From a virus (Duplodnaviria; Caudoviricetes), in the IMG/VR virus record IMGVR_UViG_3300044274_000057, positions 1 to 27,827 of that record: 27,827 bases of DNA; one strand, 5' to 3'. Below the pieces are notes generated by a model. It was not told the DNA's origin, did no database searches, and saw nothing but the letters and a program-made list of their open reading frames with translations. Each line of letters starts with the position of its first letter. Position 1 is the first letter of the stretch. The translations under genes and the position numbers were made by a program. Shown piece after piece: positions 963 through 16,530 of this stretch.

Positions 963-1313
963 TCATGCGCACCCCGCGTATTTGACGTGTGGCGTCTCCG
1001 GCTCAGGGTCGATCAGCACGTCCACCAGCGCGGTGCGGTACGCCGCTTCGTGGTCCGGGTGCACCAGGATGTTGACGTGGTAGCCCGGCACTGGCGCCAT
1101 TTCCGGGTATTCGCTGCCTTCGCCGTCGGTCAGCGTCTCGCCGGTCGGTTCCATCAGGTCCGGGAGAAGCTTCAGACGGATGACGTGTGGATCAGCGCCC
1201 ACCACTTCGTCGCCGGTCTCGGGGTCGATGTCGGCCAATCCGGCAGCCTTCAGGGTGTCGAGCATCGAGGTCTCATCAGGTGCGCAAAGGTAGAGTGGCT
1301 TCCAGGGCTTCAT
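963..1313 (-). CDS. Fibre/lectin-associated small acidic protein (116 aa; assembly partner or chaperone-like)
   Basis: ATGA overlap with the upstream gene at 1310-1313. The LYL...PVPGYHVNI...PETPHVKYA pattern recalls small genes that follow phage LamG-type fibre genes. Confidence 0.75.
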   Translation of the reverse strand: MKPWKPLYLCAPDETSMLDTLKAAGLADIDPETGDEVVGADPHVIRLKLLPDLMEPTGETLTDGEGSEYPEMAPVPGYHVNILVHPDHEAAYRTALVDVLIDPEPETPHVKYAGCA

Positions 1314-2215
1314 GGTGTAGTTAGCTCCTGCAGTTTGGTGGCGGTCTTGGCGTGTTTGAAAACGCGGAAATCGCCCACCCACAAATTATTAGGGAACGTG
1401 CCGTTTAAAAGCGCGCCGAAGCGAACATCCATGAGGCCCGCCTCAATATCGTTAATGTACGTTGCAGCGCTTCCATTTATTGACAACACCGACTCACCGT
1501 TTCGGACATAGGAAACGCCGAATATATAACGCTCACCGGGCGATGCCGGGATAGTCGCCTGCTGGATGCCTTGCGTGCCTCGAAGTTGGGCAATAGCCTC
1601 GCCACCGTCAAAATACAACAGCACACGGCGCGAAGAAGAATTGCCCAACACAAGAAAAGTAGCGATGCCGTCCACTCTTGTTGGCACACATTCTGCCACG
1701 ATTGTAAATTCTTCTTGGTTGAACCAGTCTTCTCCGTCGACACCAGAGATAGTGACAACGTCAGCGGCTCGGGTGACTGCGGTCCCGGAGGTTTCAATAG
1801 GTGACGTGGCAACGCTGCCCGCCTCAAGCTGGAACACATCCAGGGTTCCGGTCACGGTAACGGTCACGCTGGTGCCGGTCGTGGTGAACGTGAGCGGAGA
1901 GCCATCCATTGCTGTGCCAGAACCTCCGGCTGTAATCTCCGCCGACCCGGAGCCGTAGACGCTCAGGGTGTAAGTCGTGGCATCACTGACACTCACCGTC
2001 TGGGTGGCCGGGGCAAAGCTATTAAGGAGAACATTGGTCGCGTCGACAGCTTCGATAATCTGCCCGAGAGGCTCGCCGGTGAAGCGGTCGTAGCCGAAAG
2101 CAGGCTGCCCAGCAGGCGCCTCGACAAGCTGTCCCTGGGCGTTCCAAACCCACTTCGGAGACGGCGCGGAGAGGGTGAACATGCCGTCATAGGGGACCGT
2201 TTTCATGTTGCGCAT
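1310..2215 (-). CDS. Stand-alone ConA/LamG-like lectin (spike/fibre head) receptor-binding module
   Basis: Motifs FTLSAPS..WNAQGQL..P.FGYD..TGEPLG.IIE...TN.LLNS and QLEAGSVATSPI.T.G.AVTRAAD typical of phage spike/LamG proteins. SD GGAGGT 6 nt before ATG 2215; TGATG coupling. Confidence 0.8.
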   Translation of the reverse strand: MRNMKTVPYDGMFTLSAPSPKWVWNAQGQLVEAPAGQPAFGYDRFTGEPLGQIIEAVDATNVLLNSFAPATQTVSVSDATTYTLSVYGSGSAEITAGGSGTAMDGSPLTFTTTGTSVTVTVTGTLDVFQLEAGSVATSPIETSGTAVTRAADVVTISGVDGEDWFNQEEFTIVAECVPTRVDGIATFLVLGNSSSRRVLLYFDGGEAIAQLRGTQGIQQATIPASPGERYIFGVSYVRNGESVLSINGSAATYINDIEAGLMDVRFGALLNGTFPNNLWVGDFRVFKHAKTATKLQELTTP

Positions 2216-2847
2216 CACGCCACCTCCAGAACGAACGATTGGGCTTTAAAGTCGGCGTAGAGGCTGGTCTCGCCGAACTCAGGGTGCAGGCTGCCGATCA
2301 GAGCGAGAATGCGGCTTTCCTGGCTGTTGAGGGCGTCCACCGCGTCGGCCAGGGTCTGGCTGTTCGGGTAGTCGCCCTGAGCCACGGCGGTGTCGTTATC
2401 GTTCTGGTACAGCGTCAGGCCGCCCGCGTCCGGCACCCAGAAGAACTCGGTGTCACTGGTCCCGGCGATGCCTGCCGTGGTGTCGGCGAACGTAGGTGCG
2501 CCGTTGGCCGCGACGCCGGTTATCAGGTTGAACCGGCTCTGAATCTTCCGCATCGCCCGGGTGAAGATCGTGGCAGTCTCGATGTCGCCCTGGGCCATCT
2601 CGGGGATGCCGTCAACGGTGAAATCGCGCTGGATGGCGTAGGCGCCCGACCGATCCGCGCCCTGGTACGGGACGGTGAGGGTGATCTGGGTGTCGCTGTC
2701 CACGCTGGCGATGTCGTAAACGACGCCCGTGCCGGCCATGACGAAGCTGTCCCCGGCGCTGACGTTGGCCAGCCAGGCTGTGCCGACGCCGGACACAACG
2801 GCGCTATCCTGCACCACCGAGGCGGTGCCGGTTTTGTACTGTGACAT
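2215..2847 (-). CDS. Short tail fibre / RBP adaptor (210 aa)
   Basis: N-terminal YKTGTASV...V.GVGTAW anchor typical of siphophage fibres, internal DTTAGIAGT...FFWVP...LYQN module, position after the tail-tip gene. Confidence 0.8.
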   Translation of the reverse strand: MSQYKTGTASVVQDSAVVSGVGTAWLANVSAGDSFVMAGTGVVYDIASVDSDTQITLTVPYQGADRSGAYAIQRDFTVDGIPEMAQGDIETATIFTRAMRKIQSRFNLITGVAANGAPTFADTTAGIAGTSDTEFFWVPDAGGLTLYQNDNDTAVAQGDYPNSQTLADAVDALNSQESRILALIGSLHPEFGETSLYADFKAQSFVLEVA

Positions 2848-2860
2848 GGGGTTCTCCGGG

Positions 2861-5800
2861 TTAGTCGGAATTAAATACCGCTGGGTCTTTCTGGAGGTAT
2901 CTCGCCTCGCCGATGTAAAGACGCTGGAGCTGGCTAGAGGTACCAGGGCAATAAAGCGAGGCAGAGGGAAACTGCTGGGATGTTGACGCAGTAGAGACGG
3001 GCAAGTTCGTGGTTATGGTCACCACCAGCACCCTGTCCACATAATATTCAATTCTATCGCTGTATTGGCGGCACCCAAGCCGAACCTCCAGGGATGGATC
3101 GGCAGCTAATTCTACAGCGGTATAGTCGGGCGACCCGGATGATGACCATGCATAGAGCTTGGCTCCCGTGGTGCCTGAATCCTCGAAGTACCTGAAACCA
3201 AACGAGTTTAATATGCCCCCATGGACGGACCCCTTGCCCACAAACCAATCCGCGTCGCCTGAATCCGAACCAATAAACCTGACCATCACCTCAAAGGACA
3301 CTCTCGCCTCAAAGGTTGACCACTCTTGAAACGAGAGACCAGATACATTCGGTGAAAGCCGGGCGATTTTGTCATTGACGCCGCTATCCACCGTCATCTT
3401 TATTGAGCCGGGCTTGGCAACGACGTCGCCGTCGGCGGGCGTGAGAAAAACGATTGACGTGCCGGCCTCAGTAATCTGGTTATATTCCTGCTCCAGATGC
3501 GAAACGATGTACCGGCTATAATCCAAGGAGTTGAAGTTGGCGAAACCCCTGAAATCGGTTTCCTCGCCGATCACAAGGTCGCCGGACACTTTCTGGATAT
3601 ACTTTTCTCCGCCGTCCCCGAAATAGAAGTCGCCGTTATCGTCGATGTAGGCGGTCCAGCTCGCACCGTCGTAATACCCCAGGTGGGTGGCGGTCAGGTT
3701 CAGGCCGGTGGAGGGCGTGTCACCCAGCCGGGACGGGATGCCGGACAGGTTGCTGTACCAGTCGGCGCCCAGGCTGCCCGAATCCTCCCAGGTCGACCCG
3801 TTCCACCGCTTCAGCAGCTTGGTGCTGTCGTTGTACCAGAGGTCACCCACCGACTCGGCCGTCGGGGTGCTGGTGGTGAAGAACGTGGTGACCTTGCCGT
3901 CGGCGGTGGCTTGGGCGTCGGCAGCCTCGGACAGCGCGGTGCCAATGCCGCTGTCCTGCGCGTCCTGCCATGCCGTGCCGTCGTATCGGTAAGCGCGGTT
4001 ACCGTCGTCCGTATCGAACCACAGGTCGCCCTCGCTCATGCCGCTGGCCGGCTCCGCATCCTGGTAGAACGACTGGATTTTGCCATCGGCTGCCGTCTGG
4101 GCCGCTGCCGCGTCGGAAAGGGCCTGCTGAGCGTCCGCATACGCATCGCTGAGCGTGTCCGCCTCGCCGCTGTTGATGTCCGCCAGGGAGCCGGGCTTGT
4201 CGCTCAGGTTGCTGTAGCCGCTGCCCCCGGTGATCACCACGGAGCCGGAGAACGCCGCCGAGCCGTCGCTGTAGACGGCAAACAGGGTGGTCCCGTCGTA
4301 CTGGTAGGTGATCATGCCGGTCTTGCCGTCGGCCGCTTTCGGCCCCAGCGTCGCCACCGCATCGCCCACGACGCTCTCCACCTGCCCTTCCACGCTGATC
4401 TTCTCGGTGGCGGCCAGGGTGCCGGTGACGATCTTGGAGGCGGTAAGCTTGACGATCTTGGTGCTGTCGATGGCGTCATCCGCCAGATTGGCGTCGATGA
4501 ACGCGCGGTCGGCGTCGGTGACCGTGGCCCAGGGGCTCAGGCCCTCCACCTCACCAGCGGACAGCGACGGCGTGGTGACCGTGAACTGGCTGCTGATCGT
4601 GCCCTGGCCGAAGGCGTCATAGGTGGCAAACCGCAGGTAGTAGGTGCTGTTGTCGGTGAGGCCGGAAAGCACCACCGGCCCGCCGTACTGCTGGGCCACC
4701 AGGTTCTCAGGGCCGGGGGTGAAGCCGGTGCTCTGGCTCATCCATACCCGGGAGTCGCGGTAATCCAGGTCTTCCGGCGGCTCGAAGTCGATCTGCGCGC
4801 TGCGGAAGCCGGCGGAGATAGTCAGGGCGCCCGGCAGGGGTGGAGCGACGTTCTCCACGCTGAGCCGCGCCGCCTGGGCGCTGATCTGGTTCTGCCGCCC
4901 TCGGCAGTAGACCCGAAATTCCATTTCCCGCCATGCCCCGGCACTACCGGTCTCTCGGGCAAAGTCCTCGGCGTTCTTTTCGTAGGTATAGATGAATTCC
5001 GGGTCAACCACCCATTCGGTGCGCACCAACTGCAAAAGCCCAGCCACATCGGCCCAAACTTCGACTTGGTAATCCTTGAAATAGAGATCCAAGGCGCCCT
5101 TGCCGGCGCCCTGCCGCCCCTCGGCGCCCATCTCGACCCACTCGGTGACCGAGTTCTTGCGCCATACCACCTTGACGTCTTTGCCGCCAAATACCGTGTC
5201 GTTCCCTTGCTGGAACAGCTCCATCCCGGTAACTGGCGGCGCTGGGACCACCTGGTCAGCTTCGTCCTCCGGCCCCTTATCATCAGGTTGGCCGTCACCC
5301 GGAGCACTGACCTTGGTCGTTGTGATCTCCGCCACGGTGCCGTCCTGGTTCACCTTGCCGCGCAGGGAGACGCCCCGGACTTGGACCTCGTAGGTTTTGC
5401 CGTCGCTGGGCACCACAAACGTGGCCTCCGGCGATGCCGGGCCGACCTCAAACCAGCCCGCCTGCCCCTTCTCGCGGTACTCCACCAGGCCGTAGGCGTA
5501 GTTGCTCACGCTCGGCGGCTGGACGCCCACCTCAATGGTGGAAAGGTTCGCGTTGGCCGACCGGGGGGTGTTGGTGGCCTCGGCCAGGGTCACAACCGGC
5601 GGATTGAGGGTCACCACCGGCTCATCCTCCACCGGCTCGATGTAGCCGGTCAGGATTTGCACGGTAAACGCGGTTTCCCAGACCATGGCGCCCGGCGCCG
5701 GCGAGGTGGTGGCCGTGCCCTGCTGCGGCGCGGGGCCTTTGTCGCTGGAGACCGTGACAGTACCGTCGTTGGTCACCTTGTAGGGCCTGAGGCGCCGGCC

Positions 5801-8326
5801 GGCCCACACCAGGTCCCCGCCATTGGCGATTGCGGTGCGCTCGTTGATGCTGGGGGCGTTGGCCAGCCCGTCGATCAGGATGTAACAGGCACCCGGGCCG
5901 CCCGGACCGCCAGAGCCGGCCCAGATGTGCAGCTGGGGGTCCGCCGAAGGGCTGTAGTCGGGACCCGGGGGCGTGCTGCCGGCCGCCCCGCTGACATCGA
6001 TGTACCCGTTCACGCCGATGGTCATGCCGCGCGCCACGATCATCAGGCCCGCACCACCGGCCCCGCCATCCCCACCAGGGCGTTCGTACTCGATGAATCC
6101 GTCGTAGTTGGAGATCACCGAGCCGCCGCCGCTGCCGCTGGAGCCGCGCAGGTCCACCGGGTACAGGGTGATCCCGCTTTCGTCCTGCTCGTACACCGGG
6201 GGCGGGGTCTGACCCGGCTGGATCCGGCCGCCAATGATGGCTCCGGCCGGCCGCATGGTGGCCAGGCCGTCCACGTCCAGCAGGTACGGGTCGAGCGTGC
6301 CCCGGTTCTGGTAGCCCCGACCGCCCTGCGGCGTCGACTGGATGTCGATAAAGCCCGGGGTGCCCTTGTTCACCGCGTCCCAACGGCTGCCGTAGTTGAA
6401 GAAATAGCCGCCGCTGGAGACCATGCTGGTGGTCCCGGCGCCGCCCGGGTAGCCGCGGCCTTTGCCGTTGATCTTGGCGTTGTTCAGCGAGAAGAAGCCA
6501 CGCACCAGCAGGGCCACGTTGTCGGAGATGCGGATCTCGGCCGCGTCGTCGCAGGTGAGGTCCGTGGGGCACCAGAAGAACGACGCCTCATCGCCCAGCC
6601 CATCCCCACCGGCCAGGTCCAGCAGCCCCTCCACCCGGGTGACGCCGCCGGAGACGGTCACCACGCCCGGGAAGTTGGTTGGGCTGATCTCGGTGCCCCG
6701 CTCATACCATTCGTCCGGGATGGCCGTGCCGGTCTCCTGCGGCGGCAGCGCGCCAGCCTTCTGGCTGGACCCGAACAGCTTCACCTTGACCTTGCCCGTC
6801 CGCCAGTCGGTGCTGATCTGCTGGATCTCGAAGTTCCGATTGAGGTGGCCGTCTACGGTCGTGCCGGTGTAATCCTGCACCTCGAACAGGTCGACCCGCA
6901 CGATGTCGCCCACCTCGAGGTCGTTCTGGTCCGGGGTCAGGGTCAGGTCCAGGCGCAGCGGCGGGCCCGCGTATCGGTCCCGAAGGCTGGCGATAAGCCG
7001 CTGGATCGTCTGCGAGCTGTGGCGGCTGCTGTACAGGCCCCGGAATTCGAGGTCCTTCTGCTCGGCCTTGCCGTGGGTCTGGATCGACTCCAGGTCCGGC
7101 AGGTAGTTCAGGCGGGTGAACTCTTCCTGGAAGATGTCCCAGTTCCAGGACACGAAGATCTCATTGATCACCGCGCCCATGTCGTGGGTCAGATCGCCGT
7201 AATCCGCCACGGTGTCGGCGTCCAGGCGACGGACATAGCCACCGGTGGAGTGCACGGCCGTCATGCGCTGCAGGCCCAGCTGCCCGTCCGAGTAGATGGG
7301 GGCATAGCAGCCCATCAGCAGAAGAATCTCCTCCTCGAGAAACTTCTTACCGTCCTCCTCCTCAAGCCCGGCCAGGCGAATGATGAAGCCCTGGTTGTCA
7401 TCATCCGGCACCCAGAGGTCTTCCCCGATGGCCTCGAAGTCGCTGGTGCGGATGAACTCGGCCGGAACGCCCAGGTGCCAGTGATCCGGCAGGTATTCGC
7501 CCGGGTAGCCGTAAATGGCACCGGTGAGCACCGCGTAGGCCAGCATCGGCCCCGGCATCTCCAGATACACGAACTCTGTAACCTTGGGGCTGGATTCGCT
7601 GTCGTCGGTGTTGCTGAGCTCGATGCGCAGCGGGGTGGTGCCGAACAGACCCCGAGTCACGCCGGTGAATTTGTTGGCCTCCTTGCCGGTGTAGGAGGCA
7701 ATCTCGAAATCGTCGTCATCGCCTTCCAGGCGAAGCAGGCCGATCTTCTGCCCGGCGGCCACGGCCCCGGCCACGTTCGGGTGCTGGTACGCCTCAAACC
7801 CGTTGGTGGTCAGGACCTCGATTTCGTCGGCGCCAGCCTCCAGGGTGCGGTTCAGGCGCGTCTCTTGCGGCGTGAAGATGTCCTCGCGGAGCATCCGCTG
7901 AACGTCGGCGCACTTGAAGCTGTAGGACAGATCCTTATAGCCGGCCTCATCCACGATCTGGGTGGTGGCGAGGATGTAGCTGGACCACGGCAGGGTCTCA
8001 TCGCCGACATAGAACCGCACGGTCTTGCCCCGCAGGCCTTTGCCCTGGCTCAGCCGGTCCGCCTGCAGCGCGGTCAGGCCGTCGTCCAGCACCTCAAAAT
8101 TCAGGCTGCCGATCTCGGAGTTGGCCTTGTCCGGGTTCAGCTTCTGGGAGGTGCCTGAGATGCTCTCCAGAACGCCCTCGATGACGTTCTCGCCGGTCAG
8201 GCCGGTGATGGCGTGAGAGGTCAGGTAGAACAGGTCATCGTCGCCGAAGTCGATGGACACGACGAACTGGGGCGCCTGCCACTGGCTGTCGTTGACTTCG
8301 GCGAAGGCGCTGTTATCGATTCTCAT
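2861..8326 (-). CDS. Large tail-tip / central fibre protein (hub, Gly-rich insert, FN3-like domains, repeats, variable C-terminus), 1821 aa
   Basis: Long ORF with phage codon bias downstream of TMP. Hub-like DLEVGDIVRV motif, FN3-like YEVQVRGVS and GLTDNSTYYLRFATYDAFG, GDLW repeats; ATGA overlap with the upstream gene. Confidence 0.9.
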   Translation of the reverse strand: MRIDNSAFAEVNDSQWQAPQFVVSIDFGDDDLFYLTSHAITGLTGENVIEGVLESISGTSQKLNPDKANSEIGSLNFEVLDDGLTALQADRLSQGKGLRGKTVRFYVGDETLPWSSYILATTQIVDEAGYKDLSYSFKCADVQRMLREDIFTPQETRLNRTLEAGADEIEVLTTNGFEAYQHPNVAGAVAAGQKIGLLRLEGDDDDFEIASYTGKEANKFTGVTRGLFGTTPLRIELSNTDDSESSPKVTEFVYLEMPGPMLAYAVLTGAIYGYPGEYLPDHWHLGVPAEFIRTSDFEAIGEDLWVPDDDNQGFIIRLAGLEEEDGKKFLEEEILLLMGCYAPIYSDGQLGLQRMTAVHSTGGYVRRLDADTVADYGDLTHDMGAVINEIFVSWNWDIFQEEFTRLNYLPDLESIQTHGKAEQKDLEFRGLYSSRHSSQTIQRLIASLRDRYAGPPLRLDLTLTPDQNDLEVGDIVRVDLFEVQDYTGTTVDGHLNRNFEIQQISTDWRTGKVKVKLFGSSQKAGALPPQETGTAIPDEWYERGTEISPTNFPGVVTVSGGVTRVEGLLDLAGGDGLGDEASFFWCPTDLTCDDAAEIRISDNVALLVRGFFSLNNAKINGKGRGYPGGAGTTSMVSSGGYFFNYGSRWDAVNKGTPGFIDIQSTPQGGRGYQNRGTLDPYLLDVDGLATMRPAGAIIGGRIQPGQTPPPVYEQDESGITLYPVDLRGSSGSGGGSVISNYDGFIEYERPGGDGGAGGAGLMIVARGMTIGVNGYIDVSGAAGSTPPGPDYSPSADPQLHIWAGSGGPGGPGACYILIDGLANAPSINERTAIANGGDLVWAGRRLRPYKVTNDGTVTVSSDKGPAPQQGTATTSPAPGAMVWETAFTVQILTGYIEPVEDEPVVTLNPPVVTLAEATNTPRSANANLSTIEVGVQPPSVSNYAYGLVEYREKGQAGWFEVGPASPEATFVVPSDGKTYEVQVRGVSLRGKVNQDGTVAEITTTKVSAPGDGQPDDKGPEDEADQVVPAPPVTGMELFQQGNDTVFGGKDVKVVWRKNSVTEWVEMGAEGRQGAGKGALDLYFKDYQVEVWADVAGLLQLVRTEWVVDPEFIYTYEKNAEDFARETGSAGAWREMEFRVYCRGRQNQISAQAARLSVENVAPPLPGALTISAGFRSAQIDFEPPEDLDYRDSRVWMSQSTGFTPGPENLVAQQYGGPVVLSGLTDNSTYYLRFATYDAFGQGTISSQFTVTTPSLSAGEVEGLSPWATVTDADRAFIDANLADDAIDSTKIVKLTASKIVTGTLAATEKISVEGQVESVVGDAVATLGPKAADGKTGMITYQYDGTTLFAVYSDGSAAFSGSVVITGGSGYSNLSDKPGSLADINSGEADTLSDAYADAQQALSDAAAAQTAADGKIQSFYQDAEPASGMSEGDLWFDTDDGNRAYRYDGTAWQDAQDSGIGTALSEAADAQATADGKVTTFFTTSTPTAESVGDLWYNDSTKLLKRWNGSTWEDSGSLGADWYSNLSGIPSRLGDTPSTGLNLTATHLGYYDGASWTAYIDDNGDFYFGDGGEKYIQKVSGDLVIGEETDFRGFANFNSLDYSRYIVSHLEQEYNQITEAGTSIVFLTPADGDVVAKPGSIKMTVDSGVNDKIARLSPNVSGLSFQEWSTFEARVSFEVMVRFIGSDSGDADWFVGKGSVHGGILNSFGFRYFEDSGTTGAKLYAWSSSGSPDYTAVELAADPSLEVRLGCRQYSDRIEYYVDRVLVVTITTNLPVSTASTSQQFPSASLYCPGTSSQLQRLYIGEARYLQKDPAVFNSD
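3782..4111 (-). repeat. Tandem 62-aa-period protein repeat inside the tail-tip protein
   Basis: AQTAADGKIQSFYQ..P....GDLWF....RYDGTAWQD versus AQATADGKVTTFFT..P....GDLWY....RWNGSTWED; 186-bp period. Confidence 0.85.
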
Positions 8327-8706
8327 ACGAACTCACGCACGTTGAAGTTGACCGAGTAGAAGCCGACGCTATTCACCAGCGACCAGCTTGGGTCACCGTC
8401 GATCTGGCAGGTATAGAGCGTGCCGAAGGGGTTAATCTCGAAGGTCTCGCCGCCGGCCACCGAGTCCAAGAACTCCTGAAGCTGGGCCAGCTTCGATTCG
8501 TCGTCCTCGGCGACTGTGGAAACGCGCCACTCCCGGTCAATTCGGGTCAGTCGGTCGAAGCGCCGGCCAGACAGAGACGTAGAGCTGGCCGCCTGCCGTC
8601 GGGGGCGCGGGGTCCAGTCGGAAATGGGCACCTCGAAGGTGTATTCCTCGCCCACAGTCCGGCCGCCCGCCACGCTGCGCTTGGCGGTGTAGGTGATCGT
8701 TGCCAT
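8323..8706 (-). CDS. Putative distal tail protein (127 aa)
   Basis: Position between TMP/moron and tail tip; LQEFLDSVAGGETF..PFG pattern of distal-tail-like proteins; SD GGAG. Confidence 0.75.
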   Translation of the reverse strand: MATITYTAKRSVAGGRTVGEEYTFEVPISDWTPRPRRQAASSTSLSGRRFDRLTRIDREWRVSTVAEDDESKLAQLQEFLDSVAGGETFEINPFGTLYTCQIDGDPSWSLVNSVGFYSVNFNVREFV

Positions 8707-8718
8707 TCAGGGCTCCAG

Positions 8719-8750
8719 AAACGAAAAAGCCCCGCCGAATGGCAGGGCCT
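8719..8750 (-). terminator. Rho-independent terminator closing the moron
   Basis: Minus strand GCCCTGCC-ATTC-GGCGGGGC-TTTTTCGTTT. Confidence 0.8.
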
Positions 8751-8795
8751 GGAAAGCAAGGGTCCCGCCGGAGCGAGACTGTCAGGATGTTGCGG

Positions 8796-9110
8796 TCACC
8801 GGCCCATGCAGGCGCCGAATGCTGCATCCCTGTAATCGGAAATCGACCGCTGTTGGTGCCTCTCGGTGGAGTAGCGAGGCTTATCCCAAGCGTCCATCAC
8901 CATGGCATTCACGAGTTCGTTGGGTTCGCCGTCGTTGACTATCTCAAGCATCTTCGACATCGCCACTCCTCGCTGGCGCGCACTCATGACCGACTCGGCA
9001 AGTTTCTCGATTGCCTTGCAGGCCTCCATGCGTTCCTTGAAGCTTTTTTCGGCCTGCCCGGTGGCAGGCAATAAAGCCAGGACCGCCAGACACAAAATCA
9101 TCGATTTCAT
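8796..9110 (-). CDS. Moron: secreted/periplasmic helical protein (104 aa)
   Basis: Signal peptide MKSMILCLAVLALLPATGQA, two Cys in the mature part, ATGA overlap with the lipoprotein gene, lower GC. Confidence 0.8.
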   Translation of the reverse strand: MKSMILCLAVLALLPATGQAEKSFKERMEACKAIEKLAESVMSARQRGVAMSKMLEIVNDGEPNELVNAMVMDAWDKPRYSTERHQQRSISDYRDAAFGACMGR

Positions 9111-9640
9111 TGCTGCCCCTCCTGAGCCTGCGGCGACACCCTGAAGTGATCGCGCTCTTGGTGGGCCGTGTGGACCACGTAGACGTCCACAGGCTCACTA
9201 GTGATAGGCTCTTCAAGAGGCACGATGGTTGTCGTCCACCACATCTTCAGGGAGCTGGAGCTGGGCACGTTGGGCACACTGTCGGTCCCCTCCTTCCGGC
9301 TGACCTCTTGGCCACCACGCTTCACAACGATTTCCAGCCACTTCCCTTTCGCTGAATCCAGGGAGTAGGCGTCAAGGCGAACCACGAAATACCCGCCAGG
9401 CCACGGAACTTCGTCAGCCTCTTTCATGGCCAATTCGGCCTCTTTGCGCTCCCGCTCTTCGAGCATCGAGGGTGTAACGTACTCCAGCGTGACCCGCCCC
9501 ATGTAAGAGCTTTTCTCTACGTGCTCAATGGGGTAGCCATTACCCTCGTTCGTCGGAATCCCCATCATCTTGTCCATGTTGGCGCAGCCGGACAAAGCCA
9601 GGGTCAGCGCCAGCACCATGGATGCCATTTTTATTGTCAT
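9107..9640 (-). CDS. Moron: predicted lipoprotein (candidate superinfection exclusion); alternative start 9646
   Basis: Lipobox LALSG-C after a hydrophobic stretch; SD AAGGGA; atypical codon usage; inserted in the tail operon. Confidence 0.8.
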   Translation of the reverse strand: MTIKMASMVLALTLALSGCANMDKMMGIPTNEGNGYPIEHVEKSSYMGRVTLEYVTPSMLEERERKEAELAMKEADEVPWPGGYFVVRLDAYSLDSAKGKWLEIVVKRGGQEVSRKEGTDSVPNVPSSSSLKMWWTTTIVPLEEPITSEPVDVYVVHTAHQERDHFRVSPQAQEGQQ

Positions 9641-9672
9641 GTGCATTCCCTTTTTTGCATGTTTAGGCCCAA

Positions 9673-9701
9673 ATCCTATGTGATGCAGGTCACACCGTCT
9701 A
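9673..9701 (-). promoter_or_regulatory. Putative moron promoter with a CRP/Vfr-type palindrome in the spacer
   Basis: Minus strand TAGACG, 17 bp, TAGGAT; the spacer contains TGTGA-CCTGCA-TCACA (9679-9694). Confidence 0.65.
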
Positions 9702-11888
9702 GCGGAGGGTCCGGCCGTTCCGGCTGTTCGAGTCGATCAGCACGTAGTCCTTGTTGGCAATTCGCTCCTTCAGGGCATCACCAAACATATCTGCTAGCTC
9801 ATCTTTGGTGGCGCCCACGACGCTGCCCTGAACTGTGATCGAGATCGAGCTGCCACCGCCACTATCGGCCCCTCTGCCGCCGTCTAGCTGTACCGGTGCG
9901 GGTGCTGCCGGGACAGTGTTCACGCCCCCCGTGATAGCGGCCGCGCCTCCGCCGCCGTTGAAATTGGCGGATTTAATGGCGCTGAGCTGCGCTGTCTGGG
10001 CCACTACGGCAGCGGTGGCAGCAATTGGCGCCAGGATGTGACCGATCACCGGCACCGCCGAGGCAGAGGCATATGCGTTGGTGGCGGCCAGCGGGATATT
10101 GATTGCCCCCTGCGCAATAGCCGCTGCCTTGCCGATCTCGAACATCTTGCGGTTTTCGCTGGCCATGAGTCCGGTCAGCAGGCCAAACACGTCAGCCGTG
10201 CCTTTAAGCTGCAATTTCCACCGCTGCTGATCGAGGTCATTTAGGGTTTCTTTGTGCCTCTCCTCCTCGGCTGCAATCGCATCATTCCACTTGGTCTGAT
10301 TGTCGAAGTCAGCGGCGCGCGCAGCCTCCAGCACCTCGAGGCGCCGTTGGTGGTGCTCCCTCAGCAACTCCTCCTCGGTCATGTACCGTTCGAGAAGCTG
10401 CTCCCCGGCGTCGATGTCGGTGGCGCGCTCCTTGTCCATCTCCGCCAGAATTTCAGCCGCGTCCCGGCGGGACTTGATACTGAACTCCAGCGCCTTCTGC
10501 TCAGCCTCATACGCCTCAATCTGCCGGTAGGAGCCCTCGATGGCAGCCAGCTGCGCGGCGGTGGCGCCTTCTTTCCTGGCCCGGTACAGCTCCTCCTGGC
10601 GGGCCGTCATGCCTAGGGTTTCGGCTTCCAGCTGGAGGGCTGCGACGCGCTTCTGGATGGAGTCGGTGGCCTTGTCGTTACCGCCGCCGAGCGGTTCGGG
10701 CGGATCGCCACTGTCCTGGTCCGGGTTGGTGTTGCCGAACCCCTGGTTAAAGCTCTGCTGCAAGTCGTAGGCAACCTGAAGGCGCTCGCGCACTTCCTCG
10801 ATCTTGCGCTTGATCTCTTCGTCGCTGGTGAACACCAGCCCGATGTCCTTCTCCAGGAAGGAGGCATCCAGCTGCTTCTCCAGACCGGCCAACTCCCGCT
10901 CAAGCCTGGGGATGTCGTCGGCGGCCACGCCGTTGATCTTGGAGGCCAGCTCGGCACCAAGGTATTCGGTGAAGTTCACCACTTCGCTGGCGCCAGAGGC
11001 CATGGTGCCGATCAGTGTAGCGAAGGCTGTGCCAAGGGTGACCACGCTGTCTTTAAAGTTCGGGTCGGTGACCAGCTCGCGCAGGTCGTCGATGGCATCG
11101 TTGAAGCCGGAAACGTCGGTCTCACCGAAGGTGTCGATCAGATCATTGCGGAGCTGCTGGAGTGACTGGCCCACGGTGCGGGGCATGTCCTGGAATTCGC
11201 GGTTGATGCTGTCCGCGCTGGACAGGAGTGCCCGGGTCACCGCCGAGCCGGTCAACTGGCCTTCGGCGCCCAGCTCCCGCAACTGGCCGATCGTCACACC
11301 CAGGCCGTCGGCAATGGCGCGCGCCAGGCGGGGGCTGTTCTCCAAAACCGAGTTCAGCTCCTCGCCGCGCAGCGTCCCGGAGGCCATGCCTTGGGACAGC
11401 TGGAGGGTGGCGGAGGCCGCTTCCTGCGCGCTGGCGCCGGAGACCACGAACGACTGGTTAATCGCTCGGGTGACCGTCAACAGCTGCTGATTGGTCAGGT
11501 CCAGCTCTTCACTGGAGCGGGCCAGCCGGGCGTACAGGTTGATGGTTTCGCCGAGGCCGCCACGGGTGTCCTGGGCCAGCTTGTAGGCCGCCTCGTAGGT
11601 GTCGTTCAGCTCCTCCTGGCTCTCGGTCACCAGCCGCAGCTGGGAGCGCAGCTCGGAGTAGGTGTCGGACGCCTGAACAACGGCGCGGATCGCCACACCA
11701 ATGCCCACTGCGGCGAGCACCTTGCGCAGGCCGCGATACGCCCCACCCAGCTGGTCGGTGGCACGGGTGAGCCGCTCGGTTTCCTGCTCGGCCCGGCGTG
11801 ACTTATCGGTCAGGCCATCCAGGGACCGCTGGCCACGGTCGACTTCACGGCTGTCAACGGCTAGTACGAGACGCGCTGTTTCGGTCAT
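9699..11888 (-). CDS. Tail tape measure protein (729 aa)
   Basis: Tape-measure domain (QLSQGMASGTLRGEELNSVLENSPRLARAIADGLGV..GQLR); Ala-rich helical; follows the chaperones. Confidence 0.95.
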   Translation of the reverse strand: MTETARLVLAVDSREVDRGQRSLDGLTDKSRRAEQETERLTRATDQLGGAYRGLRKVLAAVGIGVAIRAVVQASDTYSELRSQLRLVTESQEELNDTYEAAYKLAQDTRGGLGETINLYARLARSSEELDLTNQQLLTVTRAINQSFVVSGASAQEAASATLQLSQGMASGTLRGEELNSVLENSPRLARAIADGLGVTIGQLRELGAEGQLTGSAVTRALLSSADSINREFQDMPRTVGQSLQQLRNDLIDTFGETDVSGFNDAIDDLRELVTDPNFKDSVVTLGTAFATLIGTMASGASEVVNFTEYLGAELASKINGVAADDIPRLERELAGLEKQLDASFLEKDIGLVFTSDEEIKRKIEEVRERLQVAYDLQQSFNQGFGNTNPDQDSGDPPEPLGGGNDKATDSIQKRVAALQLEAETLGMTARQEELYRARKEGATAAQLAAIEGSYRQIEAYEAEQKALEFSIKSRRDAAEILAEMDKERATDIDAGEQLLERYMTEEELLREHHQRRLEVLEAARAADFDNQTKWNDAIAAEEERHKETLNDLDQQRWKLQLKGTADVFGLLTGLMASENRKMFEIGKAAAIAQGAINIPLAATNAYASASAVPVIGHILAPIAATAAVVAQTAQLSAIKSANFNGGGGAAAITGGVNTVPAAPAPVQLDGGRGADSGGGSSISITVQGSVVGATKDELADMFGDALKERIANKDYVLIDSNSRNGRTLR

Positions 11889-12198
11889 TCCAGGCCTTCG
11901 ATCTCAGGTGGTCCAGATGCCGCAACACGTCCACCTCCCAGGGCAGGAGGTGAACGCGCTTCAGTGCGGCCCAGTGATGGATCTCGGTGAACGAGCAGTC
12001 GCCCAGCTCGCAGAACCAGCCCCACAGGTAGGCGGTGCCATCCGGAGGCGGATCTGTTTTCAGGCTCTTGGGTTTCTTGCCGGTCTGGCGGTAAACCGCC
12101 TCAAGCTGCTGCCGGCGGCTGGCGCCGGTCTTGGGGTCGGGGATCGTGTCCGCTATTTCTTTTTCCGCCCACTCGTAGAGTCGGTGGACGGCTTCCTG
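11854..12198 (-). CDS. Tail assembly chaperone T segment (C-terminal part of the GT fusion made by -1 frameshift)
   Basis: Not in the ORF track. Open -1 frame from the slippery site to TGA at 11854-11856 reads QEAVHRLYEWAE...YLWGWFCEL..CSFTEIHHWAAL..V.LLPWEVDVLRHLD, typical of gpT-like segments. Confidence 0.85.
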   Translation of the reverse strand, partial: QEAVHRLYEWAEKEIADTIPDPKTGASRRQQLEAVYRQTGKKPKSLKTDPPPDGTAYLWGWFCELGDCSFTEIHHWAALKRVHLLPWEVDVLRHLDHLRSKAWNDRNSASRTSR

Positions 12199-12551
12199 AA
12201 AAAACGGGCATCACGCGAGGCATGGCGGTCGATCATGTCCCGAAGCTGGGGGGCTTCACGGAGCAGCGTTTTCACGTTCTCCTCGGAGAATTCCTCCTCC
12301 AGGTCCCAGCCGGCCACCAGGGCCGCGCACAGCGTCACATGGCGCTCGGTGCTGTCCACGGCCTCACCCTTGGCCAGGGACTCCATGTCCTGCCGGTAAG
12401 CGTCCTGCTTCGCCTGCTGGAAGGCGTCGGACCATTGCGACCGGATAATCAGGTGGTAGTCCGTCGGCGTGCCGTCCGGGTGGGACAGGGGCACCTTGGT
12501 GCCCTCGTTGGCCTTCTCGCGGGTGAAGAACTGCTTCATTCCTTCGCTCAT
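12153..12551 (-). CDS. Tail assembly chaperone G (132 aa)
   Basis: Between tail tube and TMP; LVAGWDLEEEFSEENVKTLL..AP motif; ATGA overlap. Confidence 0.88.
   Translation of the reverse strand: MSEGMKQFFTREKANEGTKVPLSHPDGTPTDYHLIIRSQWSDAFQQAKQDAYRQDMESLAKGEAVDSTERHVTLCAALVAGWDLEEEFSEENVKTLLREAPQLRDMIDRHASRDARFFRKPSTDSTSGRKKK
12198..12204 (-). other. Programmed -1 ribosomal frameshift slippery heptamer T TTT TTC
   Basis: In-frame CGT TTT TTC AGG near the 3' end of the chaperone gene; X XXY YYZ form. Confidence 0.8.
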
Positions 12552-13486
12552 GCAGCACCCCGCAGGATCACGATCTGGCTTTCCTCGGTGGCGTCATAGA
12601 GGGCCTGGAAGTCCATGGAGACGGTGACCTCGCCCTCACCGCTCACGTCCGGCTGGCCGGAGTTGTACTTCACGCGCGGCAGGCTGAATGTGTAGGCGTT
12701 CGTGCCGTCGCTCAGGGTGAATTCCAGATTGGACTCGGTCTCGTTCAGGAACTTCTCGTAGAGCGCCACGCTGTCGAAGAAGGTGGTGATCGAGCCGGTC
12801 AGGTTGGAGCGGGCGATGCTCACGCAGGCCGCGCTGTCGGAGCCCACCACGAACAGCGGTGACAGGCCGTTCTCCAAGGTCAGGGACAGCTCGGTGACCG
12901 TCGCAATGGCTGAGCCGCCCTCGCTGATCTCACCGGAGAACGAATCGAACGGGCTGGTGGTGCTCGCGCTCTGGTAGGTGGCGCCCGTGACCGGGGCCTG
13001 GGCGGGCGCAGCCATGGAGCGGCCCACCAACCCAAAGGAGCTGGTGATGATGGCGTTGGTGGAGACCGTCAGGTTCCAGGTGTTGAACTCGCAGCCCAGA
13101 TACCGCAGGTACTGGCCGATGTCCGCGAAGTGGCGCTCGATGGTGAACGGGCGGCGCACCACGCCTGCCTTGAGGGTGTCGGTGCCGGCGGACGGCGTGT
13201 CCGCTTCCCAGGTGCCGCACAGAACGGCCTCGAGCATCGGGCCGAACGCGCCGCCGTAGCTCAGCTCGGTGGAGATGTCGCCGCCCACCTGCTTGTTGCC
13301 GTGGCGCATGTCGGCGATCTGCCGGTCGGCGCGCAGCTCGTTGCTTTGCAGGGCCTCTTTCGTCAGGGCCAGTGTGGTGCCGGTCTGGCGAATCGGGGTG
13401 AAGTCGGGGGTTGCCGGAGTGGTGCCGGCAACGGTTTCGGCCACCAGGGCCATAGAGTGGCGTGAGCCGTTTGCAGGGCAGCCCAT
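12548..13486 (-). CDS. Major tail tube protein (312 aa)
   Basis: ET..GTTP..P, SNELRADRQIAD.R.G...VGGDI..ELSYG and FTIERHF.DI motifs; SD GGAGG. Confidence 0.92.
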   Translation of the reverse strand: MGCPANGSRHSMALVAETVAGTTPATPDFTPIRQTGTTLALTKEALQSNELRADRQIADMRHGNKQVGGDISTELSYGGAFGPMLEAVLCGTWEADTPSAGTDTLKAGVVRRPFTIERHFADIGQYLRYLGCEFNTWNLTVSTNAIITSSFGLVGRSMAAPAQAPVTGATYQSASTTSPFDSFSGEISEGGSAIATVTELSLTLENGLSPLFVVGSDSAACVSIARSNLTGSITTFFDSVALYEKFLNETESNLEFTLSDGTNAYTFSLPRVKYNSGQPDVSGEGEVTVSMDFQALYDATEESQIVILRGAA

Positions 13487-13506
13487 AACGAACCTCCGTC
13501 AGATAC

Positions 13507-13530
13507 AAAAAAGCCCGCTCAAGGCGGGCC
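13507..13530 (-). terminator. Rho-independent terminator upstream of the tail tube gene
   Basis: Minus strand GCCCGC-CTTGA-GCGGGC-TTTTTT. Confidence 0.75.
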
Positions 13531-13550
13531 GATAGGAAAGGGGGTTGGGT

Positions 13551-14015
13551 TTACGCCCGGCTGATCCAGGCGCTGTAGTAAATCGTCATCGTGGTTCGCG
13601 ACCAGTTCTCCACCCGGCGCGGCTGTTCGTAGCCGCAGGAGCGGATCAGGACCTTGAGCGGGTCCCAGACCAGGAATTCCTGGGCCTGGAAATCGGCGAT
13701 CAGGGTCTCGGACAGGGCCGGGGCGTCGAAGCGCGTGCCGGCCTTGTAGCGGTTGGCAATTTGGTCAGCCAAAGTGATGGCCGGGATGTCCCCGCTATTG
13801 AGGGGGTGATTCAGGTCGATCTGCAGGAATCCATCGTGGCGGTCCTGGCCCTCATCCCCGAGCGTGGCAACGCCGGGCTGGCTCGGGACGACGAACAGGG
13901 CTGCCCATGGGTCCGTACCCGGGGTGAAATCCTTGTTCGGGAACGCCGTGGTCAGGCCGAAATCGCCATCCAGCCAGCTCAGCACCAGCGCGTTACGAAC
14001 GTCGAGGAATCTCAT
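13551..14015 (-). CDS. Tail terminator (DUF4128-like) with an apparent loop insertion
   Basis: Last neck gene before the tail tube; AFPN..F.P, G.LQIDL..P...G and ADQIA..YKAGT motifs. Confidence 0.85.
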   Translation of the reverse strand: MRFLDVRNALVLSWLDGDFGLTTAFPNKDFTPGTDPWAALFVVPSQPGVATLGDEGQDRHDGFLQIDLNHPLNSGDIPAITLADQIANRYKAGTRFDAPALSETLIADFQAQEFLVWDPLKVLIRSCGYEQPRRVENWSRTTMTIYYSAWISRA

Positions 14016-14416
14016 ACGCGGTTCTTCTGAGCCTCTTCCTGGAGAATCTGCCGAAAGCGAGCCACGTTCTTGCGGACCATGCCCTCGGGCGCCTTCGTCT
14101 TGGAATAGCCCTCAAACTCGATACGGTAGGCGTAGGGCATGTTGTTGGTCAGCACGGTATAGCTGCCGCCCTGGATCGCGGCCACGATGGACTCCATCTC
14201 CGCCAGGGTGGCCCCGCCCTGCTTGTCGGCGCGGCCATTCTCGCCGGAGGCCGGCTTATCGGTCGTGGCTTGCCAGTCGCCACGGAGACGGCCATCAAGG
14301 ACTGGTGTGTCCATGACCACGGCCCGAAACAAGCGCAGCTCCACACCCCGGGCGGTTTGCTCCAAGGAGCGACCAGCCTTCCGGGCGAACCCGGCGACAT
14401 CATCACCGAAGCTCAT
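14012..14416 (-). CDS. Neck/tail completion protein (HK97 gp10-like)
   Basis: TPVLDGRLRGDW...NNMPYAYRIEF.GYS..KAPEGMVR motif. Confidence 0.88.
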   Translation of the reverse strand: MSFGDDVAGFARKAGRSLEQTARGVELRLFRAVVMDTPVLDGRLRGDWQATTDKPASGENGRADKQGGATLAEMESIVAAIQGGSYTVLTNNMPYAYRIEFEGYSKTKAPEGMVRKNVARFRQILQEEAQKNRV

Positions 14417-15561: not shown

Positions 15562-16530
15562 TTACTGAGCGGCGTCGCCAACTGCGATAACGCCGGCGGT
15601 GTGTTTCACGGAGGTGGCCACCTGGTCCCAGTTGGTGCCGGTAGCCAATTCCGCGTCGGAGGGGGACTTTCCGCCGTTGGTTTCGTCCCAGGTGTAGCCC
15701 TTCAAGCCCAGGCCGAAGGTGTAGTCCACCTGCATGGTGGTCTCGATCCGGGTCTGGCCGTTGGACGTTTCGATGTTGCTGATCACGTCGCCGGCGTCGT
15801 GGACGATAGCCGCGGACTCCACCAGGCCCAGAACCTTCTGCTTGTTCGGGGTGCCGGCTTCGTACAGGGCGGGCGCGTCGGTCACCACCACCGCCTTGCC
15901 CAGGATGTCCACAACGGTCACGTTCTGGGCCTGGAAAAGCTGCGGAGTGTTGGTCAGGTTCTGGCCGATCAGCTTGTGGTACACCGAACCGGTCATCACG
16001 TTGGACAGCACGTTGCCGCTGTGGTCGCCGAACTTGGCGTGCGCGTCGTTCAGGGCGCTGTAGGACAGGCCGCCAGTGGCGGACACGTCATTGGTGGCGT
16101 CGCTGTTGTTCTCGATGGCAGCCACCAGGGCAGCGATGGCGGTGTTCAGCTGGTCCGCCATGAGTGCCTCGGCAAAGTTTCGGCTGGCCACCTCGATGCC
16201 CTCGGCGGTCGGCTTCTGCAACCAGGTCAGCTGGCCGGGCTCGAAACGGATCGGGCCAAAGCCGCCGGCAATCTTCACCGAGCTGTGCTTCAGCTGGGTC
16301 AGGTCGGTGGCGGAGGCGGAGGCCTGGGAGGCGTAGCGATCCACGCGGCGCTGGGCGCTGTGAATGGCGGCGAAGAACGATTCCTGGAGGAAATCGCCGT
16401 CGAAGCCCTCGGTGGTCAGGCGGATAGTGTTACGGCTTGCGGCGTTGAACTTTTCCACCATCTGGTCCAGCGTCTCGATGGTCGCCGGCATGATGTACTG
16501 GTTGAACACCTGCATCTGTGAAAGAGACAT
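15562..16530 (-). CDS. Major capsid protein (322 aa)
   Basis: Follows the scaffold, strong codon bias, SD GAGGTG; FNAAS...I.L and GLKGYTWD..NGGKSP..AELATGTNW motifs. Confidence 0.93.
   Translation of the reverse strand: MSLSQMQVFNQYIMPATIETLDQMVEKFNAASRNTIRLTTEGFDGDFLQESFFAAIHSAQRRVDRYASQASASATDLTQLKHSSVKIAGGFGPIRFEPGQLTWLQKPTAEGIEVASRNFAEALMADQLNTAIAALVAAIENNSDATNDVSATGGLSYSALNDAHAKFGDHSGNVLSNVMTGSVYHKLIGQNLTNTPQLFQAQNVTVVDILGKAVVVTDAPALYEAGTPNKQKVLGLVESAAIVHDAGDVISNIETSNGQTRIETTMQVDYTFGLGLKGYTWDETNGGKSPSDAELATGTNWDQVATSVKHTAGVIAVGDAAQ

Follow-up and report, generated by a model that had tools for sequence, protein, structure and literature searches.

What can one short peptide be doing on two unrelated proteins of the same virion? 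This question is raised by a 27.8-kb virus record (IMG/VR record IMGVR_UViG_3300044274_000057, Caudoviricetes, 27,827 nucleotides), which we analysed over its whole length and call the window. Its siphophage head and tail genes all lie on the minus strand. Here, a short side fibre ends in a ten-residue peptide (the tag), the tail terminator carries a second copy within an insertion, and the gene starting at the fibre stop codon encodes a ConA/LamG-fold module that lacks this peptide. Our data suggest that the tag is a portable donor strand, which would dock the tagless lectin-fold module at several sites of the virion. From sequence comparison and structural modelling, we estimate the probability of this reading at about 75%. 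The relatives of the window virus include a prophage in Alcanivorax sp. DP30, and one related protein is labelled Alcanivoracaceae.

The tag pair on side fibre and tail terminator

The C-terminus of the side fibre reads ETSLYADFKAQSFVLEVA, followed by the stop codon, and positions 2227-2271 encode ETSLYADFKAQSFVL. Its last residues are LYADFKAQSFVLEVA, and the ten-residue tag is LYADFKAQSF. In the terminator, positions 13668-13709 encode ETLIADFQAQEFLV with the tag LIADFQAQEF, which is located within a 19-residue insertion. The pattern shared by the two is L-x-[LA]-[DN]-F-x-x-[QE]-x-[FY], and both profile and pattern scans found a single tag in each of these two window proteins. When the two copies were aligned in register over 12 codons, 7 residues were identical, 4 of them via different codons, and 21 of the 36 bases matched. 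A recent DNA duplication is excluded because most of the identical residues use different codons and so few bases are shared. These data bear out an earlier note on this DNA, which had described a peptide common to fibre and terminator with synonymous codon differences, and which had also assigned the module to a separate gene with its own Shine-Dalgarno (SD) sequence. The ATG of this gene (2215-2213) overlaps the fibre stop codon in the string TGATG, and a GGAGG is located 7 nucleotides upstream. Judged by this arrangement, the overlap probably couples translation of the two genes.

The module and its in-chain hairpin in fused homologues

The module of the window matches the phrog_5939 family (E 2.8e-21), and the evidence for its fold consists of this match and the predicted model of a fused homologue (P0189). 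P0189 carries LGLDFKQQVF in-chain and is 91% identical to the window protein over half of the module. Its model has a mean predicted local distance difference test score (pLDDT) of 92.8, and strands at residues 13-16 and 21-23 form an ordered hairpin. The best matches among solved structures are ConA-fold domains, and phage ConA-like proteins are also matched. Identity to the solved lectins is below 20%, and a sequence search of the PDB with the module yielded no matches. When the model was compared in VIA, residues 10..311 were aligned to residues 7..196 of the CBM40 domain 6er3_B (Z 15.5, 153 aligned positions), and domain 4 of AbnA was matched with Z 16.9. The 153 aligned positions exceed the approximately 138 residues of the C-terminal domain alone. 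Because the fused model shows an ordered hairpin and the CBM40 alignment starts on it, the jelly roll probably begins with the tag as its first strand, and a second domain would be inserted behind this strand. The split module would then likely be a socket with an open groove, devoid of this first strand. The name lectin follows the predicted fold, and sugar binding by the module is suggested by fold likeness only.

More homologues tell the same story. In two phages with a lambda-like tail, the module is fused directly behind SLRADFKARSF or ALRADFKVPSF, and the fibre end and module start of the window align to a lambda-like fused homologue without any gap separating the tag from the module. 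Among 81 module homologues, 29 carry the motif 35-75 residues ahead of a conserved anchor, 21 are tagless and 31 were left unclassified by the pattern, although many of the latter visibly bear the motif. In all 16 genomes compared at the gene level, the split module has its own SD and start and an N-terminus without the motif. Thus, two proposals of the earlier note are supported, namely that in fused phage proteins a hairpin stands just before the module, and that in the window this hairpin has been split off.

At L066:2778-5639 (minus strand), two tandem genes for tagless modules enclose the gene of the small protein, and a frame change, which may be real or an assembly error, interrupts the second of them. 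The payloads of one lineage (lineage C) vary widely: in its tagless modules (L058:1501-3018, L060:343-1863, L061:1-1755), a short socket domain precedes further domains, among them repeat arrays.

To quantify how far the two tags stand out by chance, we used a profile that was trained only on the in-chain hairpins of the 29 fused homologues (21 distinct 10-mers). When this profile was run over 8,407 10-mers of 36 window proteins, the fibre tag ranked first (21.2 bits) and the terminator tag second (11.2 bits). Rank 3 was a 10-mer of the capsid protein at 10.0 bits, and because this value is so close, the terminator copy taken alone stands only modestly above background. The score of the terminator tag was reached by 74 of 200,000 random 19-mers and by 205 of 100,000 shuffles of the insertion, but this comparison is partly circular, since the training motifs had been chosen by a pattern containing D/N/S/E-F. 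The capsid 10-mer (FDGDFLQESF, residues 43-52 of the major capsid protein, 15562-16530) fails the strict pattern and is probably a chance match.

The terminator insertion

The terminator is well identified. It matches phrog_179 (E 2.9e-22) and, above cutoff, PF13554 (4.2e-10). The top Foldseek matches of its model are the terminators of FCWL1 and T1 and the gpU protein of lambda, and the gene is flanked upstream by a Neck1 gene (14012-14416) and downstream by the tube gene (12548-13486). We compared its loop with a distant set, for which the best 150 of 813 matches were taken and 2 already sampled proteins were removed. In 135 of the remaining 148 representatives this loop comprises 16 residues vs 35 in the window terminator, and in the 40 terminators of cultured phages among the matches listed the matched span is only 128-135 codons. 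The motif is therefore not a normal part of terminators, a possibility that the earlier note had wanted checked. Among 14 full-length close homologues, 13 have the insertion and one (P0018) does not; LDF or ADF is kept and the flanks vary. All nine distinct terminator tags share L1, D4 and F5 without exception, and Q/E8 and F/Y10 are retained as well. The ratio of non-synonymous to synonymous polymorphism (pN/pS) of the tag codons is 0.44 (23 genes, pairwise, uncorrected), which indicates purifying selection. The core of the terminator model is confident, and within the insertion pLDDT falls below 50 at residues 103-109 and 111-115; the free terminator tag is thus predicted to be disordered.

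The same loop site is used by other terminators. The distant terminator P0120 carries FELDFVKDSY there and P0158 a domain of 93 residues, and because of these two cases the loop appears to tolerate external additions. These comparisons suggest an outward-facing display site. Members of the P0120 cluster with 135 residues were considered as insertion-free relatives and rejected, because they have the tag and differ in length only by a shorter N-terminus. Besides P0158, extra domains, either inserted or fused, occur in the phrog_179-like terminators P0028, P0060, P0123, P0150, P0157 and P0059, which makes the terminator a recurrent place for display.

Co-occurrence of tags and split modules

For co-occurrence we used the window and 15 genomes in which both loci were present; 3 of 18 fibre loci were fragmentary and were left out. 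In 16/16 genomes, the terminator and the fibre end both carry a tag, and the tagless module has a gene of its own. The co-occurrence of insertion and split module gene, for which the earlier note had proposed a test, thus held in these genomes, and co-occurrence extends to a second, unrelated lineage described below. The fibre/module junction is a one-base overlap in 14/16 genomes and a one-base gap in 2/16, and a purine-rich SD-like run precedes each start. In two prophages with untagged terminators of 138 residues, no module was present within 32-33 kb. Among 401 genomes from the order of an Alcanivorax genome and 70 from its family, there was only one tagged prophage, which had already been sampled, and two untagged ones. 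The terminator profile had no matches in five records of other lineages.

The terminator and fibre tags of one genome resemble each other more than those of different genomes do (490 vs 397 ± 29, p 0.00015). This significance is to be taken at face value only, since the genomes are related and the comparisons are not independent. Relatives have strongly different payloads behind the socket, and the terminator tags stay fixed. This fits a tolerant groove, which would recognise chiefly L, D/N-F and the aromatic residue at the end; it also leaves room for some terminator copies that may no longer be in use.

Further tag-bearing proteins

Central fibres represent a further tag site. When 18 central fibres were compared, 2 of them proved to contain a tag, which lies in an inserted stretch of about 24 residues within a knob repeat: LDLDFTTETF in G006 and LSLNFINQEF in G003 (L079:2979-9947, residue 1774, and L086:2951-9571, residue 1666); the other knobs inspected do not carry it. 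Each of the two tags best matches the fibre tag of its own genome among 6 types (38 vs 23 for the next type, and 32 vs 24). G006 contains a second tagless module gene, which is interrupted by a frame change and has no tag directly upstream. When a post hoc pattern was applied to the open reading frames of at least 100 residues in 109 loci, it matched in 27 distinct contexts, and each of these was a terminator, a fibre end or one of the two central-fibre inserts.

A second lineage consists of myophages. In the proviruses G479 and G480, a phrog_26379 baseplate protein has a proline-rich extension ending in MVLDFANQxYQSI, and both genomes also encode a 70-residue protein bearing two tags, and a module without one. 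In the whole record of either provirus, these tags account for the only two matches of the strict pattern (0.2 and 0.05 matches expected for G479 and G480, respectively). We inspected the best 80 of 92 loci of this baseplate wedge family, whose profile spans 219 positions. Here, we found 76 loci with neither extension tag nor module, 49 of which had at least 4 kb of downstream DNA. The 4 loci with a module (L117:8753-11218, L119:8750-11206, L151:7992-10039, L118:3345-5134) all have a tag extension beyond the profile, 3 by the strict pattern and L151 with two looser copies. In L118 the module is fused to a tag, and an internal Met is present where the split forms start, with no clear SD ahead of it. 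Because the module is fused, use of the wedge tag of L118 would depend on internal initiation or on an exchange of strands. The wedges of Pbunavirus with DUF2612 were rejected as carriers of a whole module: phage F8 gave no match to the module profile, and tblastn covers only part of a related module. The part of PMC10329688 available on E217 gp45 adds nothing further on this question.

Tandem ConA-fold genes were found at L115:8634-11194, L126:7494-11824, L127:29-3582 and L116:85-1508. The product of the first gene terminates with a tag-like peptide and that of the following gene has no tag at its start, which suggests chained modules. The gp49 protein of Azospirillum phage Cd (L148:17950-20697) has a tagless module at its N-terminus and a high-scoring tag at residue 735, before a phrog_8610 domain.

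Proposed mechanism and alternative explanations

As far as the sequences go, the motif is in-chain when the module is fused, missing from the split module, and found in unrelated structural proteins only in module-bearing lineages. From this pattern and the model we infer binding in trans by strand complementation and occupancy of the neck by the module. The tag would be a donor hairpin that completes the beta-sandwich of the ConA-fold protein in trans, and this completion would dock the module on both the fibre end and the terminator. The split would release the module for sharing among virion sites, and it would be needed for this purpose because a fused module fills its own groove. In these protein families the terminator ring has six sites and the fibre may be a trimer. 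Up to six modules could thus sit on the terminator ring, and three on each fibre if the latter is a trimer. The docked modules may bind surface or matrix glycans for reversible adsorption, and exchange of the module cassette would alter the payload at every tagged site at once.

Several observations weigh against docking at many sites. Across 4 lineages, the true pairing of terminator and fibre tags ranks only 2 of 24, which is not significant; four lineage-C genomes combine LDF terminators with ADF fibres, and the same terminator tag is found alongside two different module types. Constraint on the tag is weaker than that on the terminator core, with pN/pS values of 0.44 and 0.30, respectively (23 genes). 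The 18-kb fragment L120 contains a tagless module but no tag in the record. The number of independent events is small, as the 16 genomes may have one origin and the 4 wedge loci another. On the structural side, VIA reports only the first and the last aligned residue, so that the strand assignment is indirect, and only about one quarter of the 102 alignment rows contain the terminator insertion, which is a possible cause of its low pLDDT.

Part of these data would also be explained if only the fibre copy docks the module, as in an ordinary split gene whose two products are joined by strand complementation, and if the terminator insertion is a former docking site or has another role such as contact with the tail tube or neck. 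The much lower score of the terminator tag, its constancy when the module cassette is swapped and the lack of significant covariation between lineages point in this direction. However, the invariant and kept positions of the nine terminator tags, the signature of purifying selection and the recurrence of the pattern in central fibres, baseplate wedges and one distant terminator argue against a disused or unrelated peptide, and we consider this explanation unlikely. Less probable still is a scenario in which the tags are read by another partner, for instance by the phrog_18574 small protein acting as chaperone or adaptor, and not directly by the module. The gene for this protein, which carries no functional assignment, trails the module in most loci inspected, but it also follows fused modules without a free tag (L029, L030). 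Moreover, L151 has tags and a tagless module and no small gene between the module and the next gene, and in the fused model the tag belongs to the module's own fold.

It is also very improbable that the split is only apparent, i.e. that programmed frameshifting or readthrough re-fuses fibre and module and makes trans docking at the fibre unnecessary. Such an event would be in line with the collinearity of fibre end and module start with the fused homologue and with a module frame that is open for 10 codons upstream of the ATG. A conserved frameshift is, however, argued against by the junction, because it overlaps in 14 genomes and is gapped in 2; an SD-like run precedes each module start, and by eye there is no in-phase slippery heptamer in the open stretch of the window. 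Re-fusion would also leave the tags in terminator, central fibre and wedge unexplained. Chance, or convergence on a generic amphipathic beta-strand, hardly comes into consideration and is largely refuted already. In its favour, the motif is short, the score of the capsid 10-mer is close to that of the terminator tag and a core 10-mer of one untagged terminator reaches 15.2 bits. In addition, looser patterns gave 7 scattered matches in 80 loci outside the wedge and module genes, besides two 70-residue tag genes. On the other hand, the motif is found at four kinds of sites, each time within an insertion or an extension, it tracks the module in two lineages, and whole-record scans gave 2 matches each vs 0-0.2 expected.

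We therefore return to docking of the tagless module at several sites. In a broader form, towards which we lean slightly, this would be a natural tag-and-catcher system of tailed phages, siphophages as well as myophages, in which a mobile ten-residue strand from a ConA-fold module serves as an address label. Such labels would be present on terminators, central and side fibres, wedges, two-tag adaptors and, forming chains, on the lectin modules themselves, and one swappable catcher gene would set the glycan specificity of every labelled site. If this is true, a docking site can be gained by an insertion of 20-30 residues, and domain fusion is not needed. Phages would have a general route for adding or moving adhesion modules, and one gene swap would retune all sites. 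Many tagless phrog_5939 genes annotated as hypothetical, and unexplained short insertions in core virion proteins, would obtain a role. This reading predicts lectin-fold modules where head and tail meet, remote from the tail tip, and the natural peptide-catcher pair might be used for display on laboratory phages.

Gene map of the window

The features of the window are summarized in Table 1. The label of the side fibre follows its PHROG matches, which mostly cover residues 1-90, with phrog_1980 and phrog_2712 (tail fibre) matched over residues 1-73. A Pfam search gave no matches for either the side fibre or the module. Near the end of the fibre a coiled-coil is likely, with the tag as last element. 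The phrog_18574 small gene trails split and fused forms of the module alike in many loci, and its protein matched only unnamed viral clusters in Atlas.

Table 1. Positions of the tag, the module and the neighbouring features in the window
Feature	Position	Strand	Remarks
Small protein, 116 residues	963..1313	-	phrog_18574
Tagless ConA/LamG-fold module, 301 residues	1310..2215	-	phrog_5939 family
Split point, GGAGG within the last fibre codons and TGATG stop-start overlap	2213..2227	-	
Short side-fibre/adaptor protein, 210 residues	2215..2847	-	fibre-type N-terminal anchor; PHROG matches
Tag copy 1, LYADFKAQSFVL	2227..2262	-	equivalent of the in-chain first hairpin in fused homologues
Central tail/fibre protein, 1821 residues	2861..8326	-	without tag in the window; equivalent knob repeat tagged in 2 of the 18 central fibres compared
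Tail terminator, 154 residues, gpU-type fold	13551..14015	-	phrog_179, PF13554
Terminator loop region with 19-residue clade-specific insertion	13662..13727	-	
Tag copy 2, LIADFQAQEFLV	13668-13703	-	in the terminator loop region

Two further regions vary among relatives. Window positions 3001-3600, which encode the C-terminal part of the central fibre, have a G+C content of 0.53 vs about 0.65, and this is consistent with a swapped tip domain. Between the tape measure and the distal tail genes (8796-9646, minus strand) there are two small genes with export- or lipoprotein-like N-termini; one of them matches phrog_2315 and the other has no match, and relatives carry other small genes in this slot.

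Comparison with known systems

We found no description of this arrangement in the literature searched, most subscription papers and supplements being outside that search. The principle itself is familiar. In the donor-strand complementation of chaperone-usher pili, and in engineered tag/catcher pairs, a beta-sandwich lacking a strand receives it in trans. Pili use the immunoglobulin fold, self-polymerising subunits and a chaperone and usher, and the engineered pairs were split artificially from one domain. In contrast, in the system proposed here the fold to be completed would be a ConA jelly roll, and the tag is natural and inserted into unrelated proteins of the virion.

Among phages, the Klebsiella podophages of the KP32/K11/KP34 type have branched receptor-binding proteins (RBPs), in which, according to the accessible part of PMC13352976, a peptide on the payload RBP2 is docked at one site into a branching-domain socket on RBP1. 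Both systems would thus attach a host-binding protein with a gene of its own to the virion by means of a short conserved peptide and a partner domain. In the window, however, the peptide is on the scaffold, appears to be derived from the payload's own fold and is found on several unrelated structural proteins. Because this polarity is reversed, with the peptide on fibre and terminator and absent from the payload, the window system is not a member of the KP32 type.

The rope-type chain fibres of A1002, GP4 and VP1 are similar in another respect. As far as PMC13730344 could be consulted, their payload subunits join an extended scaffold peptide via an augmented beta-sheet, and a split nozzle is also described, whose missing strands are supplied by a second protein. 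A separately encoded payload is common to both systems, and so would be the augmented-sheet attachment to a scaffold peptide, which we propose here from sequence and model. The rope type relies on a single dedicated protein, the rope, along which the sites are serial and which carries small dimers as payloads, and the consulted part of that paper reports neither a peptide shared by unrelated structural proteins nor a ConA-fold module. The window system does not belong to the rope type either: unlike the rope, each tagged protein of the window has a single tag, and in the second lineage at most two were found, in the 70-residue gene or the L151 wedge. For the neck, Staphylococcus phage 812 offers a precedent, as gp56 forms dedicated neck-bracing dimers on the outer face of the terminator ring (PMC12886913, in part). 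A separate protein would be located on the terminator ring in both phages, but for gp56 the consulted part of that source indicates no shared tag and no link to a fibre payload.

The closest relatives of the window module are the phrog_5939 and other ConA-like (LamG, PF13385-type) modules of phage tails, which belong to the same family and fold. These are usually fused behind a fibre or anchor and keep the hairpin in-chain, whereas the window module is encoded by a stand-alone gene without the hairpin. Taken together, the tag with its split module is a recurrent, real feature and represents a new form of a known assembly principle.

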